A DNA stretch of 64,000 bases from Bacteroidales bacterium (GTDB lineage Bacteria; Bacteroidota; Bacteroidia; Bacteroidales; UBA7960): NCBI GenBank assembly GCA_031323845.1, contig JAVIYP010000004.1, positions 14,512 through 78,511 of the forward strand, in the 5' to 3' direction. The position numbers and the translations under genes were made by a program. How positions within the stretch are numbered: the stretch's first letter is position 1; the number at the start of each line of letters is the position of its first letter. The notes beneath the pieces were generated by a model. The model did no database searches. It saw only the letters and a list, made by a program, of their open reading frames with translations, and was not told the origin of the DNA. This document shows, one piece after another, positions 43,749 through 52,261 of the stretch.

Positions 43749-46685
43749 TTACATCCCCAGGAGTTTAACCGACAGCATCAATTGGCCCTGTGGTTTCTGA
43801 CTCTCTTCAAAAAGCCAGGCGTAACCAACCGACCAGGTGGTTTTCATATACGAGAGCATCACTATCTCTATATCCGTCTGAAAACCCGCGTTGAAAACAT
43901 GTCGCGACACATCGCTGCGATCGGGGTCGGTGAACAGGTGTGTGCCAAATAATGAGGTGTAAATATAGGTAGGATATATCCAGGTGGCACCGACGTTACG
44001 TGTTCGTAAAGGACGAAGGTTCAGTTCGCTCATGGTTCTTATGTAGTTGTGCGCAGGCAATGCATCGATTTCAGCACCCGGGAAAGCAAGACTGCCCCTG
44101 TATTGGCGTGGTTCGCGCCAATCGACATAGTTGTTCCGGAAACCACCCAGGTAAAAGTATGACAGGGCCGATTCCCTGCTGCCAAAGGACTGACCGGCGC
44201 TGTTACGGATCCAGAAACTGGTGTTCCTGATGCCGGGCACCAGGAAGCCCACGTCCTGGTTCGAAACGATGGACGGGTAAAACGAGTCGGCCGCATAATA
44301 GGCAACGCCTGAGACGCGCCAGTTATAGCCCGTTTCGTGGTCGACGCCACCGAGGGTACGGCGCAGTTTCGACATGTTGAAGCCGGCCGTAGCCGCCTGG
44401 AACTGTCTCATGGGCGACTCGATGTTCTGATGCAGTGGCAACACTTCAAGGTCGCCGTAATGATACACTCCAAAGCTGTAGCCGTAACGGAAGGGCTCTC
44501 TCAGCGTATAATTTCTGTCGTAGGAAATACCAACGCTATAACCGGCACGGCTTCTCTTGGTCGGGCCGAAGAGGTCGTAAAAGTCCGTGCGGTTCCAGGT
44601 GGCGCTCAGCTTCCAGTTCCAGTAGCGCCAGTCGAGATGGGCGTGCACCTTCTGTTTGTCTTCAAAGGAGCTCCATGGCGAAGTGGCCAGGAAGAGGTCG
44701 ATCTGGCTCAGCGACAGGGGGTCACGCCAGAGCATACGGTAACCGACGGCAGCCGTGTTTTTATAGCCTGTCAAGTCGGGCCAGGCGTTGGCCAGGAACA
44801 TCTCCCGGACCGGGTGATAGGCAACCTCCCGCACTCCGGTGGTGTCCACATGCGGTGGCGGCGGCAGCGACCATTCAGTCACCTGCGGGTTGCGCTCCAG
44901 CACATCCATCCCAAGAAAATAAATGGCATTGGCCTCATAAAGGACCTCCAGCGGAATGCGTCCCGGTTTCATTCCATCACGATAGAAGCGCAGCACCAGC
45001 AACGAATCTTCGCTGTACTGATAGGGCATGAAAAAGCCCGTTTCCGTATTGGACAGCAGGTCAAACGATCCGTCTTCAATGCCCACGCGCCACACGTTGG
45101 AAACACCGGTGTAGTATGACGTGCCAATGAGATATTCATTGCAGGGGGCAAACTTGAATTGCGTCAGCGTATTGTCGTCGAGCTTAAGCAGGCTGCGGTA
45201 GCGCGTATTGCCCATCTCCAGTTCCCGTATTTCGAAAAGCACAAGTTCCTGCTCGCCTCCGACGCCTGAAAGCGTGGCGGCGAGGTATCTTCCGTCGGAT
45301 GAGATGTCGAGGTCGAAGATGGCCTGGCCAAAGGGTGTTTCCCAAAGCGGCTCGATGCTTTCGTAGGGCTCGGGAAATTTCACCAGCATAGAATGGCCGT
45401 TGTCGAGGCGCACGCCCCAGATGCTGCGGTCGGCGCGGTTAAACACCAGGTCGCCGGTACGCGTGAAAGGCAGGATGGTTTCCTTGCGGCCGCTTTCAAC
45501 GTCAATGGCCACCAGGCTGCGGTACTTGTAGTTGTGCTCGGTGATGTAAACGATGTTGCTGTCGGGGTCGTAGGCCAAATGTGTGGAGTAATACAGGGCG
45601 GGTGTGTCGAGGGTTGCCAGCTTGCGGATGTCGCCGGTGCGGGTGTCAATTTCGGCTATTTGTGAGATGATGCCGGGGTAGTTGATGGCCATGTACATCT
45701 TTTCGGTGTCGTGGTTGTAGCGAAAGGTGGAGGCGTTGCCCAGAGGGTGCGCGGTGATTGGCTCAAAGGCGGTAAGCGGGTATTCCTTCACCCTGTTGAT
45801 GTTTTCTTGTTGAAACTGACGTTCGAAAGCGATCCACTCGTCCCAGGCCTGCCCTACCGGCTTGTCATAGACCTGCCTGAACTGCCTGGCATAAAAGGCC
45901 TTGCTGTCTTCCGAGCGCAAGAAGAAGTCGTGCAGCTTGTCAACGCCGTATTCCCTGGCCAGGTATGTGGTGAAGCGCGAGCCGTAGAGGTAGGCGTTGG
46001 CGCCTACCTGGAAGTCGAGTGCCGTGCCTTCGGTTTCGAGGCCCACTACTGAGTGGATGGGGGCATTTTCGTGCACGAGGCTGCGGAAGTACATTTCGTC
46101 GTAGTATCCCATGGTGCGACCGAGGCCTCCTGACATCCAGGTTTCCATGAAAATGGCGATGCCTTCCTGGTACCAGCGGGGGGCATACCATCGCGGCACG
46201 GTGGTGTAGCTCCACAAGGCGGAGAGCGGGTAGGCCTCGTCGCGGCGCACCTTGCCGAAGAAGGCCCGCCGCCAGCGTTCATCGCGACGGTTGGGCTTGT
46301 CGGTCATCACCACGTGCGTCAGCTCGTGGTTGAACAGCCACTGGAAACGCTCACTTGCCGGCAGGATGCTGAAAGCAAAGTTATACGGTCCGATGCCGAT
46401 GAACACCTGGTTGAGCGGCATGGTAATGGCACCGCCCGTGCCATAATCCTGGAAGTCGTTGAGCATCACGTAGATCTTGCCGGGGTCGTAGTCCCAAAGC
46501 TCCTGGTGGAAGTCCATCGCATTAAAGAAGGTGCGCAGCACGTGCGGCGTCATATAGGTGTAGCGGCCGCCAAAATATACCAGCTGTACGCGTTCGGTGT
46601 CGATCTGGGTGATCAGTTGTGCCCTGGATTCATTCACTGACAGCAAGCTCAAGAGCAGGGCTGCGATGAATAGTCTGGTTTTCAT
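43749..46685 (-). CDS. Outer-membrane protein: gluzincin metallopeptidase + TolB-like beta-propeller + C-terminal beta-barrel (978 aa)
   Basis: Signal peptide; HELTH plus downstream WYQEGIA third ligand; propeller blades (FDLDISSDGRYLAA, FAPCNEYL); amphipathic C-terminal strands. Confidence 0.85.
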   Translation of the reverse strand: MKTRLFIAALLLSLLSVNESRAQLITQIDTERVQLVYFGGRYTYMTPHVLRTFFNAMDFHQELWDYDPGKIYVMLNDFQDYGTGGAITMPLNQVFIGIGPYNFAFSILPASERFQWLFNHELTHVVMTDKPNRRDERWRRAFFGKVRRDEAYPLSALWSYTTVPRWYAPRWYQEGIAIFMETWMSGGLGRTMGYYDEMYFRSLVHENAPIHSVVGLETEGTALDFQVGANAYLYGSRFTTYLAREYGVDKLHDFFLRSEDSKAFYARQFRQVYDKPVGQAWDEWIAFERQFQQENINRVKEYPLTAFEPITAHPLGNASTFRYNHDTEKMYMAINYPGIISQIAEIDTRTGDIRKLATLDTPALYYSTHLAYDPDSNIVYITEHNYKYRSLVAIDVESGRKETILPFTRTGDLVFNRADRSIWGVRLDNGHSMLVKFPEPYESIEPLWETPFGQAIFDLDISSDGRYLAATLSGVGGEQELVLFEIRELEMGNTRYRSLLKLDDNTLTQFKFAPCNEYLIGTSYYTGVSNVWRVGIEDGSFDLLSNTETGFFMPYQYSEDSLLVLRFYRDGMKPGRIPLEVLYEANAIYFLGMDVLERNPQVTEWSLPPPPHVDTTGVREVAYHPVREMFLANAWPDLTGYKNTAAVGYRMLWRDPLSLSQIDLFLATSPWSSFEDKQKVHAHLDWRYWNWKLSATWNRTDFYDLFGPTKRSRAGYSVGISYDRNYTLREPFRYGYSFGVYHYGDLEVLPLHQNIESPMRQFQAATAGFNMSKLRRTLGGVDHETGYNWRVSGVAYYAADSFYPSIVSNQDVGFLVPGIRNTSFWIRNSAGQSFGSRESALSYFYLGGFRNNYVDWREPRQYRGSLAFPGAEIDALPAHNYIRTMSELNLRPLRTRNVGATWIYPTYIYTSLFGTHLFTDPDRSDVSRHVFNAGFQTDIEIVMLSYMKTTWSVGYAWLFEESQKPQGQLMLSVKLLGM

Positions 46686-46925: not shown

Positions 46926-46950
46926 TACGAAAAAAGTCATTCCCTGTTGC
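46926..46950 (-). promoter_or_regulatory. ECF-type promoter P4: GCAAC-N16-CGTA, overlapping a terminator hairpin
   Basis: Revcomp gcaac agggaatgactttttt cgta; same spacing as P1-P3. Confidence 0.65.
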
Positions 46951-46966
46951 CGGGGAATGACTTTTT
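46931..46966 (-). terminator. Intrinsic terminator after repeat protein B
   Basis: 14-bp perfect stem aaaaagtcattccc/gggaatgacttttt with U tract. Confidence 0.85.
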
Positions 46967-47023
46967 ATGCAGTAAATGTTCACAGAATTTGAGTGTCATT
47001 GCAGGTTTTGTTACGAGCATGCT

Positions 47024-48331
47024 TTAATCGAGAGTGAAGCCTGTGCGAAGCTGTTCATTATCAAATAAAACTGAGCCGCGCAGGAAGTCGCCGTCGCGTA
47101 TCATTTCGGAGCCGCGCAGCACTTCGTTCATCTGCAGCAAAGGAGCATCCAAAGACCGCAATTGTTCGCTGTCCAAAATGTTGAACCTGAGTTGTTCGTT
47201 GTCAAGGAATGCATCCCTGAGTTGTGAAGCATCGGTTATGCCCATGTCGCGCAATTGTTCTGCATCCCAAATAGGCAACAGGAAATTCAGCTGTTCTGTA
47301 TCAAACGCTGCAAGTTGTTCGAAGTCCAATGCACTCGCATCGTCGAGCCTGACACCATCAAGGAAACTCATCACATCATTGAGTTGTTCTGAGTCAAGTA
47401 CGGCTACGCGACGGAGATTTTCAGCGTCAAGGATGCCAAAATGACGTAACTGTTCGGCATCAAACCTCGTAAGGTCGCGCAGGTGTTCCGCATCCTGTAC
47501 CCTGAAGTTAACACGGAGTGCTTCAATGTCCATGATAACAAAATCCAGGAGTGCTTCATTCAGGAAGGCAATATCTCTGAGGTTTCCTGCGTCATTAAGT
47601 ATAATCATCCGGAGGGTTTCCGCATCCAGCTGGGCAAACTCACCCTCTTCATCCATTACGTCTTTGGCGAGCAGGTGTTCGAGCACCGGGCGGTTGTCGT
47701 TCACGATGTTGTGCATCAGCATGTTTGCGAAGAGCTGGTCGTGGGCAAGTGTTAGCTGTGGAAATTCTGCTTTTGGATGTGTTTTGAAGAAGCTTTCGAC
47801 GTCTGTCATGAAGTCGAACACCACGCCGTTGCGAACCTGTGTTTGTGCGATGGCGCTACCGGCGCTGTTGAGCACGGTGCGTATGGCAACGCGGTCCTTT
47901 TCGGAGAGGTCGGAGAGTACCCCGATGGCTTCGAGGATGCGCAGGCGGGCGTTGTCAAGGAACAAGGCGTACTCTTCCATACGGTTAAGGGTGCGGGCGC
48001 TGTTGGTGCGAAAGTCGTTGTGCTCTCTTCCTGCAGCAATTGCGAAGCGCAGGTCGTCGCCCATCTTGATGTTGGCGGCATACTCATAGGCGAGGTAGTT
48101 GCGGTATGCTTCGCGCATGTTTTGGTCGGCCAGCAGCTCGTTGCGCAGCTCAATGTCGGCTTCGGTAACGCGGACGTTGCGGTACTGGTCAACGCGGCCA
48201 ATGGTGCCGGCAGCCTCCCATATACTTAGTCCGGTAATGCGCGGATTTATCATGGCCAGCCCTATTGTCATGCCCACTACTAGACCTAATGCAAGGCCAA
48301 CAAGGAGAAATATGATCTTAGTCTTTTTCAT
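47024..48331 (-). CDS. Membrane-anchored protein B with ~16-18 hDxEQL C-terminal repeats
   Basis: Start MKKTKII (ATG 48331; the ORF-track 48472 start lies upstream of promoter P3); N-terminal TM; clearly paralogous to 48624-49658. Confidence 0.9.
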   Translation of the reverse strand: MKKTKIIFLLVGLALGLVVGMTIGLAMINPRITGLSIWEAAGTIGRVDQYRNVRVTEADIELRNELLADQNMREAYRNYLAYEYAANIKMGDDLRFAIAAGREHNDFRTNSARTLNRMEEYALFLDNARLRILEAIGVLSDLSEKDRVAIRTVLNSAGSAIAQTQVRNGVVFDFMTDVESFFKTHPKAEFPQLTLAHDQLFANMLMHNIVNDNRPVLEHLLAKDVMDEEGEFAQLDAETLRMIILNDAGNLRDIAFLNEALLDFVIMDIEALRVNFRVQDAEHLRDLTRFDAEQLRHFGILDAENLRRVAVLDSEQLNDVMSFLDGVRLDDASALDFEQLAAFDTEQLNFLLPIWDAEQLRDMGITDASQLRDAFLDNEQLRFNILDSEQLRSLDAPLLQMNEVLRGSEMIRDGDFLRGSVLFDNEQLRTGFTLD

Positions 48332-48388
48332 GGCTGTTCTTTTTTGAAAATAATTGATTGATTTCCAGCATTGGTTTGCTGATAAAAT

Positions 48389-48413
48389 TACTAAAAAAGT
48401 TCGTAAAAGTTGG
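48389..48413 (-). promoter_or_regulatory. ECF-type promoter P3: CCAAC-N16-AGTA
   Basis: Revcomp ccaac ttttacgaactttttt agta, 58 nt above the ATG. Confidence 0.75.
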
Positions 48414-48529
48414 TGTTTTTTGACAAAAAATTTCATTATCAATATGATAGCGGCAAATCTCTTAGAATTCAAAAACGGGTTCTTCGCTTCTATTCAGATA
48501 TAAAAGCCTCTATACCATCCAAAAAAACA

Positions 48530-48568
48530 ATAAACAGTCATTCCCCGCTCCCGGGAATGACTGTTTAT
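48530..48568 (-). terminator. Intrinsic terminator after repeat protein A
   Basis: 16-bp perfect stem ataaacagtcattccc/gggaatgactgtttat; duplicate of 46931-46966 including the adjacent 3' UTR. Confidence 0.85.
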
Positions 48569-48623
48569 GCAGTCAATCTTTACAGAATTTGATTGTCATT
48601 GCAGGTTTTTTGCAAGTGATGTG

Positions 48624-49658
48624 TTAGTAAGGATGTATTCCGCGAAGTTGTTCAGTATCAAAGAGAATTTGGCCACGCAGGAATTCGCTGTTGCGCATCA
48701 TTTCCGAGCCACGCAATACCTCATTCATGTTTAGCACACCCTCGAACGATTGCAACATTTCACTGTCAAGGATACCAAAATGCTGAAGCTGCTCTGCGTC
48801 AAAAAATTGCAAAAACTGGAGCATCCCTGCCTGGTCAAGAAAACCAATACTTAACAATGCTGGATTATCAAGCAGGGCCTGTAATGATGCCTCGCCTAGA
48901 CCGATAATGCTCTGAAGTTCTCCCATATCCAACAACAGCTTGTCCCTGAGTGTTTCCATGTCTAACTGCGCCAGTTCACCGTCTTCATCCATCAATTCTT
49001 TGGCAAGCAGATGTTCGAGCACCGGGCGGTTGTCGTTGACCATGGTACTCATGAGCACGTTGGCAAAAAGCTGATCGTGGGCTTTGGCCAGTTCGGGGTG
49101 TTGCGCGGGAGGGGTTGTGTCAAAGAACCGCTCCACACCCAGCATGAAGTCGAACACCACGCCATTGCGAAACTGGGTTTGCGCCAGGGCATTCCCGGCA
49201 TTGTTCAGCACGGTGCGGATGGCCACCCTGTCTTTGTCTGACAGGTCGGTTATCACAGTCAGGGCTTCCAGTATGCGAAGGCGCGCATTATCAAGAAACT
49301 CAGCGTAATCTTCCAGTCCATTAAGAGTGCGGCGGTTTTTCAGGCGAAAATCAGAGGCATCATAGCCCGCCAGAATCGCGAACCTGATGTCTTCGCCCAT
49401 TTTAATGTTGCTTGCATACTCGTAGGCCAGGTAGTTCCTGTATGCCTCGCGCATATGTTCATCTGACAGCAGTTCGTTGCGTAGTTCGATGTCGGATGCC
49501 GTTACACGTACATTGCGGTATTGGTCAATGCGGCCAATGGTGCCTGCAGCTTCCCTCAGGCTCATGCCCGGATTGGTTAAAGTAAGGCCCACCATAAGTC
49601 CTATGGCAAAACCGATAACAATACTGAATACAACGGCAAGAATTTTTGGAGTTTTCAT
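48624..49658 (-). CDS. Membrane-anchored protein A with ~8-9 hDxEQL C-terminal repeats
   Basis: N-terminal TM, EAAGTIGRIDQYRNVRVT, helical core near-identical to protein B. Confidence 0.9.
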   Translation of the reverse strand: MKTPKILAVVFSIVIGFAIGLMVGLTLTNPGMSLREAAGTIGRIDQYRNVRVTASDIELRNELLSDEHMREAYRNYLAYEYASNIKMGEDIRFAILAGYDASDFRLKNRRTLNGLEDYAEFLDNARLRILEALTVITDLSDKDRVAIRTVLNNAGNALAQTQFRNGVVFDFMLGVERFFDTTPPAQHPELAKAHDQLFANVLMSTMVNDNRPVLEHLLAKELMDEDGELAQLDMETLRDKLLLDMGELQSIIGLGEASLQALLDNPALLSIGFLDQAGMLQFLQFFDAEQLQHFGILDSEMLQSFEGVLNMNEVLRGSEMMRNSEFLRGQILFDTEQLRGIHPY

Positions 49659-49692
49659 AACGGTATGTTTTGATTGGTTGTTCTGGTGATAA

Positions 49693-49717
49693 TACTTACA
49701 AAGATCGCAAAAGTTGG
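49693..49717 (-). promoter_or_regulatory. ECF-type promoter P2: CCAAC-N16-AGTA
   Basis: Revcomp ccaac ttttgcgatctttgta agta, directly after the anti-sigma stop codon. Confidence 0.75.
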
Positions 49718-49718
49718 T

Positions 49719-50474
49719 TTATTGCACAAAAAATTGTCTGTTATAGCTCAATCGTCCTTCCTGTAGCACCTCGAGCACAAATGGGCCGGTGAATCCGGTG
49801 TTTTTGTTAAGTACGATCTGATAATGGGTTTTACCCTGGACACCAAAGCTTATCCGGTCTGCCCGGACTGTTTCGTGCATTTCACGGCCGCTGAGGTACC
49901 GCGCACGTAACAGACGGTATGCTTCCGTGTCGAAAGAAAGGGTCACTTCAATGGGGTCATCGGCGGCTGCCGTTAGCACGAGGATCACCATGTTGTCAAC
50001 CACCATGGGATTTACCTGGACCTGCCAGTCGTCTTGTGCGAACGCCATCTTCTGACCCGACCGGGCGGCCATGGTGCCGGCCATTTCACGTGAGTCGGTA
50101 AGCAGACGACCCGGCTGTACCATCAGCGTAACCACCGAGCCCAGCAATATACCAATGGCCAGCATGGCAGCATAACGCAGGAGCGCCCTGCCCTGAAAAC
50201 GGATCATCAGCGGCAGGCTTTTGCTGTCTGAGCCAAACACGCGTTCACGGTCCTGCCTGATGCGCTCCATTACTGACGGGCTCATATCGGGCACCGCAGG
50301 AGCACGGACAAAATTACGCAGGGATGCATCAAGCTCTTCCATGTCGCGTAAATAGCGCCTGACATCCTCCGATTCAGACAGGATACGGTGCAACGCATCC
50401 AGTTCCTCCCGGCTGATCGTGCCATCGAGCTTCCGGTTCACAAGGACCTCCAGTTCAGATGATATCTTTGACAT
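49719..50474 (-). CDS. Single-pass anti-sigma factor
   Basis: Follows the ECF sigma; N-terminal ASD-like helices (LDGTISREE..LHRIL), one TM, periplasmic beta domain; no HxxxCxxC zinc motif. Confidence 0.8.
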   Translation of the reverse strand: MSKISSELEVLVNRKLDGTISREELDALHRILSESEDVRRYLRDMEELDASLRNFVRAPAVPDMSPSVMERIRQDRERVFGSDSKSLPLMIRFQGRALLRYAAMLAIGILLGSVVTLMVQPGRLLTDSREMAGTMAARSGQKMAFAQDDWQVQVNPMVVDNMVILVLTAAADDPIEVTLSFDTEAYRLLRARYLSGREMHETVRADRISFGVQGKTHYQIVLNKNTGFTGPFVLEVLQEGRLSYNRQFFVQ

Positions 50475-50541
50475 AGTGTTACTGTGTTTAAACGTTTACT
50501 GCGCAACAGCCGGCTTCTTGCATCCTAGCCCTGTTTATCCT

Positions 50542-51102
50542 TCACGCCCTGCTGCTTTCAAAAAAACCCTGCCGTTCAAGTATGCCCTTTAAGAGTTTGC
50601 GTCCGTCATACAGCCTTGACTTCACTTTCTTTTCAGACAGGTCAAGCACTTCTGCAATTTCCGCATAGGAAAGTTCTTTAAAGTAATGCAGCACAATCAC
50701 TGCCCTGTAATTCTCCCCGAGTTCGCCCATTGCCCTTTGAAGCATCACGTCCCGCTCCTTCTCCATCACTGGCTTGTCAACACTGTCCGGGTTGCGACCG
50801 GCATCTTCAGGTAATCGTTCCAAACGCACAAAGCGCTGTGACTTTTTTATATGACTGATGGCCGTATTGATGGCGATGCGGTAGATCCAGCTGAAAAACT
50901 TACTCCGGTAGTTAAACGTTTCCAACTTTTCATAAGCCTTCACAAACACCTCCTGTGCCAGCTCCTCAGCCTCTTCGTGCTGCTGCAGCATCTGGTACAA
51001 CACATGGTACACTGCAGCCTGGTAATTACGCACCAGCAGCTCGTACTCCTGTATGTTTCCCGCCAGAATGCGCCGGATGACGCTATTTTCGTCGTTTTTC
51101 AT
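50542..51102 (-). CDS. ECF RNA polymerase sigma factor (SigW-like)
   Basis: Region 2 AEELAQEVFVKAY..FFSWIYRIAIN; region 4 LSYAEIAEVL..VKSRL; ATG 51102 preferred to TTG 51108. Confidence 0.95.
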   Translation of the reverse strand: MKNDENSVIRRILAGNIQEYELLVRNYQAAVYHVLYQMLQQHEEAEELAQEVFVKAYEKLETFNYRSKFFSWIYRIAINTAISHIKKSQRFVRLERLPEDAGRNPDSVDKPVMEKERDVMLQRAMGELGENYRAVIVLHYFKELSYAEIAEVLDLSEKKVKSRLYDGRKLLKGILERQGFFESSRA

Positions 51103-51108
51103 TAACAA

Positions 51109-51133
51109 TACGCCGTTGTGGTTAAAAAGTTGG
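51109..51133 (-). promoter_or_regulatory. ECF-type autoregulatory promoter P1: CCAAC-N16-CGTA, probably leaderless
   Basis: Revcomp ccaac tttttaaccacaacgg cgta ttgtta ATG. Confidence 0.8.
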
Positions 51134-51265: not shown

Positions 51266-52261
51266 TTAGCTGCTTAACTGGTTTAACTCCCAGAGTTCAC
51301 GATGGTTCATGCGCACCAGTGGCAGCAAGGCCATCTCGCCGGCTTTGCCTATCTGTTTGCGCAGCGCTTTTAGCTCCAGCAGTTTGTTTTTGATATCCGG
51401 CTCAACCAGCACCGGAAACCCGTTTTCCCTGAGCATCAGGTTTCGTTTTGCCTTGATGGACAACTCCAGGTACAGACTGAAAAAACAATACATGTCTACC
51501 AGCGTTTCCGGCTGGAAGTGCTCTTTCAGCGACGCGAGGTAGCGACCGGCCTTGGTGTCTCTGAATTGCCCCTGCCGGATCATGCGCAGCATGTCCACCT
51601 CGTTGCTGAACTCCACCTCAAGCCAGTTCTGGAGGTGGCGCGTGGTGTACATAAACACCACATAAAAAATAAGGGGTAGCAGAATGATGATCAGCAAGGT
51701 CATCAACAAGGGATCAAAAATAAAATGATTGAATGCTGAATGCAGCACCATGGCAACTAACAATCCTAATGCGCTGCCGGTTAAAAGGTTATTGTTGCGT
51801 TGCATCCCCTCAATGAGGATCATCGCAGCTATTGCCACAACACCACCATGCATGATGGCTGTGCCAAACCCCCTGACGATGGCCAGCAACACATTGAAAT
51901 CTGCCCCCAGATGAATATAATACCACAGGTTTTCAGCCAATGCAAAGCCTGTGCCTATGGCAAATCCGTAAATGGCCGCATCGATCATGAAACCGACCCG
52001 CCTGCGTGCCACCAACAGGAGAAGCAGCGAAGCCTTCAGCAACTCTTCAGAAACGGGGGCAATGTATCTTGTGAGCACATCAAAGCCTATGTTGTAAAAT
52101 CCAATTAAAAAGGAATTCACCAAATAAGCCAGTAAAGCTGAAACAACACCCCACGCCAAACACACAGCTAACAACCTTCTTGATACCAGTTTAAAGCTGT
52201 CGAGCAAAAAGAGACATCCCAAAAACAACAATACCGGGAAAAAGCCAAAGGCAATGATCAT
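51266..52261 (-). CDS. prsW: PrsW-family glutamic intramembrane protease
   Basis: Motifs PVSEELLK, GTGFALAEN, AIMHG, LHSAFN; multi-TM. Confidence 0.9.
   Translation of the reverse strand: MIIAFGFFPVLLFLGCLFLLDSFKLVSRRLLAVCLAWGVVSALLAYLVNSFLIGFYNIGFDVLTRYIAPVSEELLKASLLLLLVARRRVGFMIDAAIYGFAIGTGFALAENLWYYIHLGADFNVLLAIVRGFGTAIMHGGVVAIAAMILIEGMQRNNNLLTGSALGLLVAMVLHSAFNHFIFDPLLMTLLIIILLPLIFYVVFMYTTRHLQNWLEVEFSNEVDMLRMIRQGQFRDTKAGRYLASLKEHFQPETLVDMYCFFSLYLELSIKAKRNLMLRENGFPVLVEPDIKNKLLELKALRKQIGKAGEMALLPLVRMNHRELWELNQLSS

Follow-up and report, generated by a model that had tools for sequence, protein, structure and literature searches.

The closest described counterpart of the gene cluster studied here is the sigma-W/RsiW/PrsW system of Bacillus subtilis, in which the protease PrsW cuts the anti-sigma factor RsiW. 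To our knowledge, how PrsW chooses its substrates and what licenses the cut are still unknown, even in B. subtilis. The bond cut by PrsW in RsiW has been mapped to Ala168|Ser169 (PMC8767453, a review). In an alignment of RsiW orthologs, gathered with a query 98% identical to the database RsiW, this site reads EKYMA|SAGQVTG, with the Ala kept in 117/118 sequences and the Ser in 110/118. Other single-pass anti-sigma factors depend on signal peptidase, which is the site-1 protease for RsiV. For RsiP, signal peptidase is likewise the established site-1 protease (PMC8844934). In both, the site-1 cut obeys the -3/-1 rule and falls near the membrane. A further point of comparison is the recognition motif of rhomboid proteases (TatA/AarA), which lies next to the transmembrane (TM) helix, directs a membrane-embedded protease to its cutting site and combines a small residue at P1, a hydrophobic residue at P2' and a large hydrophobic residue at P4 (Strisovsky et al. 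2009, PMC2941825).

We analysed a 64,000-nucleotide stretch of DNA from a Bacteroidales bacterium (hereafter the window; assembly GCA_031323845.1, contig JAVIYP010000004.1, positions 14,512 to 78,511). Six consecutive genes on its minus strand encode a PrsW-family intramembrane protease, a sigma factor of the extracytoplasmic function (ECF) type, an anti-sigma factor, two proteins termed A and B, and a large protein with an HExxH motif. A first-pass annotation had pointed to a similar string next to the TM helices of the anti-sigma factor, A and B, and had proposed it as a common recognition or cleavage signal for the adjacent PrsW. As in B. subtilis, a PrsW-family protease with intact motifs, a SigW-like ECF sigma factor and a single-pass anti-sigma factor with its N-terminus inside and C-terminus outside (N-in/C-out) are encoded together. 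Unlike RsiW, whose homologs carry PF13490, the present anti-sigma factor has no match to this domain; its ectodomain is an immunoglobulin (Ig)-like sandwich, and its candidate site lies at a median of 11-14 residues from the membrane, compared with ~60 in RsiW. The arrangement also differs from that of B. subtilis in that prsW lies inside the operon, that the module includes A and B as candidate clients lacking an anti-sigma head together with an HExxH protein of ~980 amino acids (aa), and that both PrsW and the sigma factor score far under the NCBIfam equivalog cut-offs. Literature searches found neither a Bacteroidota PrsW module nor a PrsW recognition motif. Judged from alignments of ~90 related Bacteroidota loci, the similarity is real, in that a short core is conserved, in register and co-varying, but these comparative data were needed to raise the observation above chance.

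A juxtamembrane core in three protein types

All features described below lie on the minus strand. The strings were found in the translations as first noted, EMAGTM in the anti-sigma factor (50070-50087), EAAGTI in A (49536-49553) and EAAGTI in B (48200-48217), and each is preceded by a single TM helix bearing GxxxG. The three proteins had been described as otherwise unrelated. This holds for the anti-sigma factor, which showed no BLASTP similarity to A or B, but not for A and B themselves, which are paralogs with 58% identity (E=3e-128). Because A and B are paralogs, their motif is common by descent, and the window therefore holds two independent instances of the motif and not three.

The anti-sigma factor is a single-pass protein of 251 aa (49719..50474), characterized by an AlphaFold model, by Ig-like fold matches and by an alignment of 30 orthologs. 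In its TM helix (50121..50192), which carries the GxxxG, A102, G108 and G112 are invariant among these orthologs, and the conserved core of its juxtamembrane motif consists of M131, G133, T134 and M135. Its head gave no PF13490 match and has no Cys motif, and thus does not belong to the zinc-binding class (zf-HC2, HxxxCxxC). Protein A (344 aa, 48624..49658) is predicted by AlphaFold to consist of an N-in TM anchor, a flexible linker holding the motif, a helical bundle and a tail of hDxEQL-type repeats. Its motif forms the first six residues of a longer block conserved in the A family, E-A-A-G-T-I-G-R-I-D-Q-Y-R-N-V-R-V-T-x-x-D-I-E-L-R-N (49476..49553). Protein B (435 aa, 47024..48331) is the paralog with the longer repeat tail, and its N-terminus agrees with those of its homologs. 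The longest open reading frame (ORF) for B begins at an upstream TTG and would encode 482 aa (extra stretch 48332-48472), and its homologs begin with MKKTK; the true start is most likely the ATG at 48329-48331.

The A/B family comprises at least 72 homologs and has no Pfam domain. A scan of species-representative genomes gave 38 loci with the order PrsW, sigma and anti-sigma where present, one to four A paralogs, and the large protein. The most conserved part of the A-type proteins is [E/D]-h-x-G-[T/S]-I-G-[K/R]-V-D-x-Y-R-N-V-x-x-T-x-x-D-I-x-L-R-N. In the 30 anti-sigma orthologs, position -2 is always M, L, A or V, position 0 is Gly (24) or Ala (6), position +1 is mostly Thr (19) or Ser (10), and position +2 is mostly Met (20), Ile (6) or Leu (3). 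These core columns form a conservation peak of 2.9-3.3 bits amid a variable stretch. Conservation of an ExAGT string, as first proposed, thus held only in part: the core was kept, and the Glu (Glu130 in the anti-sigma factor) was variable. As read from these alignments, the common core is h-x-[G/A]-[T/S]-[I/M/L], shorter than the original string.

The core occurs in three protein types, namely beta-sandwich anti-sigma factors, A-type repeat proteins and nine chimeras of the two. The pattern [GA][TS][IMLVF] was present in 43/47 beta-type anti-sigma factors. The strict form was matched by 54/68 A-type proteins, most of the others having GT[IM] with a polar residue at -2, and by seven of the nine chimeras, the other two again having GT[IM] with a polar -2. 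In all five clade-by-class groups, the motif followed the TM helix at a median of 11-14 residues, the range extending to 24-36. Measured from the GxxxG, the motif lies 15, 18 or 26 residues away in A-type proteins and 21 in anti-sigma factors.

The remaining elements of the original string did not hold up as general features of the signal, since Glu, [NQ]P and GxxxG proved to be clade-specific. Every protein counted in the window's clade has GxxxG (46/46 and 26/26), as do 43/47 beta-type anti-sigma factors overall, and [NQ]P is confined to a clade. In the distant set, only 3/21 A-type proteins and 2/9 chimeras carry GxxxG, and we rejected it as a general component because of its scarcity in A-type proteins beyond the window's clade. 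Four tandem A-type paralogs lie in a single locus (L020 and L021), and one subtype has a much longer tether (26 residues from the GxxxG, ...YYEMGKYLGGSIG).

Structure prediction placed the motif in a similar setting in both proteins. In the anti-sigma model, a helical cytoplasmic head and a TM helix (residues 95-118) are followed by the linker bearing the motif (120-137), where the predicted local distance difference test (pLDDT) score is below 50, and by a confident Ig-like periplasmic beta-sandwich (143-248). In protein A, a TM helix at residues 3-28 is followed by the motif segment at 30-50 (pLDDT 47-55); the helical bundle after it (54-284) is modelled with confidence, and the repeat tail with low confidence. 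Both proteins are N-in/C-out, and the motif is therefore periplasmic. A strongly conserved peptide within a region modelled as flexible, seen in both proteins, is typical of a linear motif that is read by a partner.

PrsW was searched for in ~800 genomes of the phylum, of which ~65 had an ortholog (36-48% identity); this extended the comparison to a distant set of loci with the gene order sigma, anti-sigma, A-type protein, large protein, PrsW. The distant A-type proteins consist of a TM anchor, the sequence x-x-G-T-I-G-x(3-9)-[K/R]-Y-[R/N/Q] and long low-complexity helical repeats. In the distant beta-sandwich anti-sigma factors the core is likewise present, extended in some of them to the complete A-type GTIG (LAGTIG, VIGTIG, LSGTIG). 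PrsW thus opens the gene order in the window's clade, whereas in the distant clade (L057-L124) it follows the large protein and closes it; its adjacency to the large protein is kept in both.

The nine chimeras (L083, L085, L086, L097, L107, L108, L112, L116 and L119; 310-580 aa) come from this set. Each combines an anti-sigma head, a TM helix, an A-type GTIG..YR motif and a long A-type repeat tail, directly precedes the large protein, and replaces the separate anti-sigma and A genes. Residues 2-138 of the L097 protein aligned to the anti-sigma family (probability 96.7%, E=4e-10) and residues 115-194 to the A family (probability 94.8%, E=4.8e-8), with its G-T placed on the G-T of the family in both cases; L083 aligned to the anti-sigma family in the same way. 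The chimeras thus align in register to both families, and the motif therefore has an equivalent place in the architecture of each of the three types. The A-type proteins are in effect headless anti-sigma factors. One chimera tail, made of SPDFxxL repeats, matches the STI1/HOP DP domain model (E=5e-19). A headless protein of another kind was seen in L087 (9454-9978, equal to L063 1454-1978), where 174 aa comprising a TM helix and the anti-sigma beta-sandwich are encoded directly upstream of an orphan PrsW gene; in that genome, the large-protein and A-type genes lie elsewhere than the orphan PrsW.

Chance resemblance and co-variation within loci

With a core of just three to four residues, the match could be a coincidence between two unrelated juxtamembrane segments. 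Within this genome, the sequence statistics did not speak against such a coincidence. An hhalign comparison of the two families gave the TM helix plus motif as the best alignment (P=0.021 with 9 vs 73 sequences; P=0.0011 with 30 vs 110). When only the post-TM columns of the anti-sigma family were shuffled, 263/300 shuffles scored at least as high as observed; when the TM columns were shuffled too, 15/300 did. The post-TM shuffle left the score unchanged, and the score therefore comes from the TM helix and not from the motif. We rejected the hhalign match as evidence for the motif, as it is weak and this control traces it to the TM helix. Short juxtamembrane hidden Markov models (HMMs) placed the other family between the 193rd and 800th rank among 3094 ORFs of the genome; like the shuffle control, they showed no excess. 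One outside match to these HMMs, ADLAGSIGRV, has a non-TM context and looks fortuitous. Among 2754 predicted TM segments, the regular expression h.G[TS][IML] within 28 residues after the TM helix was matched by 2.8%, GxxxG was present in 9.3%, and the two occurred together in 0.7%; overall, the base rate of the motif in this genome is 2.8-6% of TM segments.

The comparative data changed this picture. The core is in register across ~90 loci and three architectures, and the chimeras join both families. None of the six other TM proteins adjacent to ECF sigma factors in this genome, taken as anti-sigma-like controls, bears the motif (0/6). Furthermore, the variable positions of the motif match between the anti-sigma factor and the A protein of one locus more than across loci. 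In permutations within clades, this matching gave p=6e-4 for 22 close loci, 1.3e-3 for 17 distant loci and 5e-5 combined, in a test that controls only partly for phylogeny, although no two loci of the distant set come from one genus or family. Pairs from the same locus include LTGTI/LTGTI, ASGTM/ASGTM, DLSGTIG/DMSGTIG, NVYGTMG/NVLGTIG and DVYGT/DVRGT. Gene conversion was rejected as the source of this identity: in the DNA, the residues in common are written with different synonymous codons, and the flanking sequences are no more alike than random ones. We read this as selection on the peptide. With co-variation in two independent clades, a chance match is already disfavoured and we regard it as highly improbable.

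Candidate readers of the motif

Of the partners encoded in these loci, PrsW is the only one present in every gene configuration. Two genomes (97% and 99% complete) have sigma, anti-sigma and PrsW and keep the motif core (IQATMI; IVGSF/VSGTV), and no homolog of A or of the large protein was found anywhere in either genome. Conversely, at least five genomes retain PrsW, A and the large protein without an anti-sigma ortholog. In one such locus (L033, 7659-8001; G009:C45:8026-8175), a remnant corresponding to anti-sigma residues 198-247 lies between PrsW and A, and sigma and anti-sigma are gone; anti-sigma loss there is therefore secondary. The small|hydroxyl bond at which RsiW is cut fits the invariant [G/A]|[T/S] of the motif. 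The PrsW of the window (331 aa, 51266..52261) has the EE and HxxxN catalytic motifs, matches PF13367 (E=1.4e-19) and is syntenic with the other parts in ~90 loci. The EE..[KR] and HxxxN motifs are intact in 76/79 orthologs, and by these residues the protease looks active.

The best-supported reading of these data is that the motif is a portable recognition or cleavage element for the PrsW of the operon, and from the sequence comparisons we give this reading an even chance of being correct. The initial proposal of a common PrsW signal survived to the extent that one signal appears common to the anti-sigma factor and A/B and is tied to PrsW by the chimeras, the co-variation, the synteny and the RsiW bond. 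It fared less well in placing a PrsW site next to the membrane. In B. subtilis, the PrsW site lies ~60 residues past the TM helix (TM end ~105, site 168) and its cleavage removes 40 C-terminal residues; it is not juxtamembrane.

Several further points weigh against PrsW as the reader. The conserved block of the A family spans ~25 residues (GTIG-x-x-D-x-YRNV-x-x-T-x-x-DI-x-LRN), far beyond the needs of a cleavage site, and is mostly missing from the anti-sigma factor. The motif also obeys the -3/-1 rule of signal peptidase I. The configuration of PrsW and anti-sigma without the large protein comes from two genomes only, and the large HExxH protein accompanies PrsW in nearly every other locus. 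Finally, sequence statistics from one genome cannot tell resemblance from chance, which makes the resemblance within this genome suggestive and no more, and the partial control for phylogeny in the co-variation test bears on the comparative data in the same direction.

Alternatively, the motif may not be cleaved at all. It could be a docking or assembly contact that binds a loop of PrsW as an inhibitor, or that pairs the anti-sigma factor with A through their juxtamembrane segments and GxxxG helices. A conserved, flexible and co-varying motif is compatible with this, GxxxG is invariant in both proteins within the window's clade, and the long A block suggests an interface over a bare cleavage site. 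However, genomes that have just one of the two proteins, the anti-sigma factor or A, still keep the motif, so that mutual pairing is not its general role, and GxxxG is missing from most distant A-type proteins. In addition, the chimeras must be destroyed to free sigma, which favours a cut somewhere in the region. We consider an uncleaved contact improbable.

The -3/-1 pattern raises the question of whether the motif is a regulated signal peptidase I site comparable to site-1 of RsiV and RsiP, in which [G/A] stands just before the cut and -3 is small or aliphatic; the action of PrsW would then concern a different step or feature. In all classes, -3 is always A, L, V, I, M, S or T, -1 is G or A, and +1 is T or S, and the anti-sigma factors of these precedents are single-pass as well. 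Unlike in RsiV and RsiP, the motif is farther from the TM helix at variable spacing, and a dedicated PrsW is encoded alongside. With its median of 11-14 and up to 24-36 residues past a hydrophobic segment of at least 20, it is far for this enzyme, and spacings of 15, 18, 26 and 21 residues from the GxxxG speak against a housekeeping reader. A housekeeping enzyme of fixed specificity would leave unexplained why the motif matches in a lineage-specific manner, a co-variation not expected for such a peptidase, and also the strict synteny with PrsW. On balance, cleavage by signal peptidase I is distinctly improbable.

A reader encoded in the cluster itself could also be the large protein, which would read or cut the motif and leave PrsW to act later on the stub or on something else. 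Its HExxH is kept in 60/61 orthologs, and its gene adjoins those of PrsW and the A-type proteins in nearly all loci and in two gene orders. In contrast, the two nearly complete genomes described above have sigma, anti-sigma, PrsW and the core but no large-protein homolog, and a site only ~12 residues from the inner membrane would be hard to reach for a peptidase of the outer membrane or periplasm. We therefore see little likelihood that the large protein is the reader.

Returning to PrsW as the candidate reader, the motif resembles the rhomboid recognition motif in being a short, linear, TM-adjacent element. If the bond were [G/A]|[T/S], P1 would be G/A and P2' would be I/M/L. It differs in that the protease belongs to another family and that the hydrophobic position would be P3, with an acidic or variable residue at P4; the PrsW gene cluster encodes no rhomboid.

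What the comparisons show is the conservation and register of the motif, its co-variation within loci, its flexible setting and its synteny with PrsW. The role of PrsW as its reader, the position of the scissile bond and any part of A and B as decoys or in feedback are inferred, and the following mechanism is offered in that sense. The motif would be displayed on a flexible tether, a median of ~11-14 residues outside the inner membrane, and would single out a set of single-pass, N-in/C-out proteins for PrsW, namely the beta-sandwich anti-sigma factor, the headless A-type proteins A and B, and, in other genomes, the chimeras. A cut of the anti-sigma factor at or beside [G/A]|[T/S] would leave a short periplasmic stub, which could then pass to a site-2 protease and so free the ECF sigma factor. 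In A and B, a cut at this place would release the ectodomains. Since A, B and the large protein each lie under their own putative sigma-dependent promoter, they would be co-induced with sigma, and the induced A and B could compete with the anti-sigma factor for PrsW and thereby provide feedback.

A bolder version, which we think unlikely, is that the motif acts as a transferable PrsW 'degron', such that any N-in single-pass protein carrying it on a ~12-residue tether would be cut. The sigma-induced headless A-type proteins would compete as substrates and thereby tune the gain of the switch. The HExxH protein, supposed here to lie in the outer membrane, would trim or hold their length-variable tails, and the state of the envelope would in this way license PrsW. 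If this were true, it would amount to a proteolytic relay across the envelope that comes with its own decoys, an unstudied system widespread in Bacteroidota. Decoy substrates that tune an ECF sigma switch are a directly testable idea. The motif is a short, mutable peptide with natural variation and co-variation; the chimeras, the headless clients and the genomes missing one partner are natural 'experiments', and the gene set is defined for reconstitution. If it is indeed what PrsW recognizes, sequence would suffice to predict the substrates of this protease, as has been done for rhomboids.

Neighbouring genes and promoter-like sites

Against the NCBIfam equivalog model for B. subtilis PrsW, the PrsW of the window scored 20 bits at a cut-off of 225, and is thus not an equivalog. 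It carries a C-terminal cytoplasmic extension of ~130 aa (residues ~200-331; 51266-51676), for which Pfam gave no match; its orthologs align over the full length (query coverage 3-330). The ECF sigma factor (188 aa, 50542..51108) matches Sigma70_r2 and r4_2 and is SigW-like, its top NCBIfam matches being SigW models at 114-124 bits (best 124), under their cut-offs.

The large protein (978 aa, 43749..46685), the constant companion of PrsW, is predicted to be exported and has the conserved HExxH and a weakly Omp85-like C-terminus (Omp85_2), apart from which no Pfam or PDB sequence match was obtained. It is the best-conserved member of the cluster (phmmer E down to 0), with orthologs in L001-L120. 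Searches of Pfam, NCBIfam and PDB gave no informative family for A, B, the anti-sigma ectodomain or the large protein.

Four promoter-like sites of the form CAAC-N16-[AC]GTA lie within 46926..51132, on the coding strand and just 5' of their genes. The site at 51109-51132 directly precedes the sigma gene, that at 49693-49716 A, that at 48389-48412 B and that at 46926-46949 the gene of the large protein. Across the window, the pattern was counted 13 times against 8±3 expected, which is not significant. Three of the four sites begin CAACTTTT.

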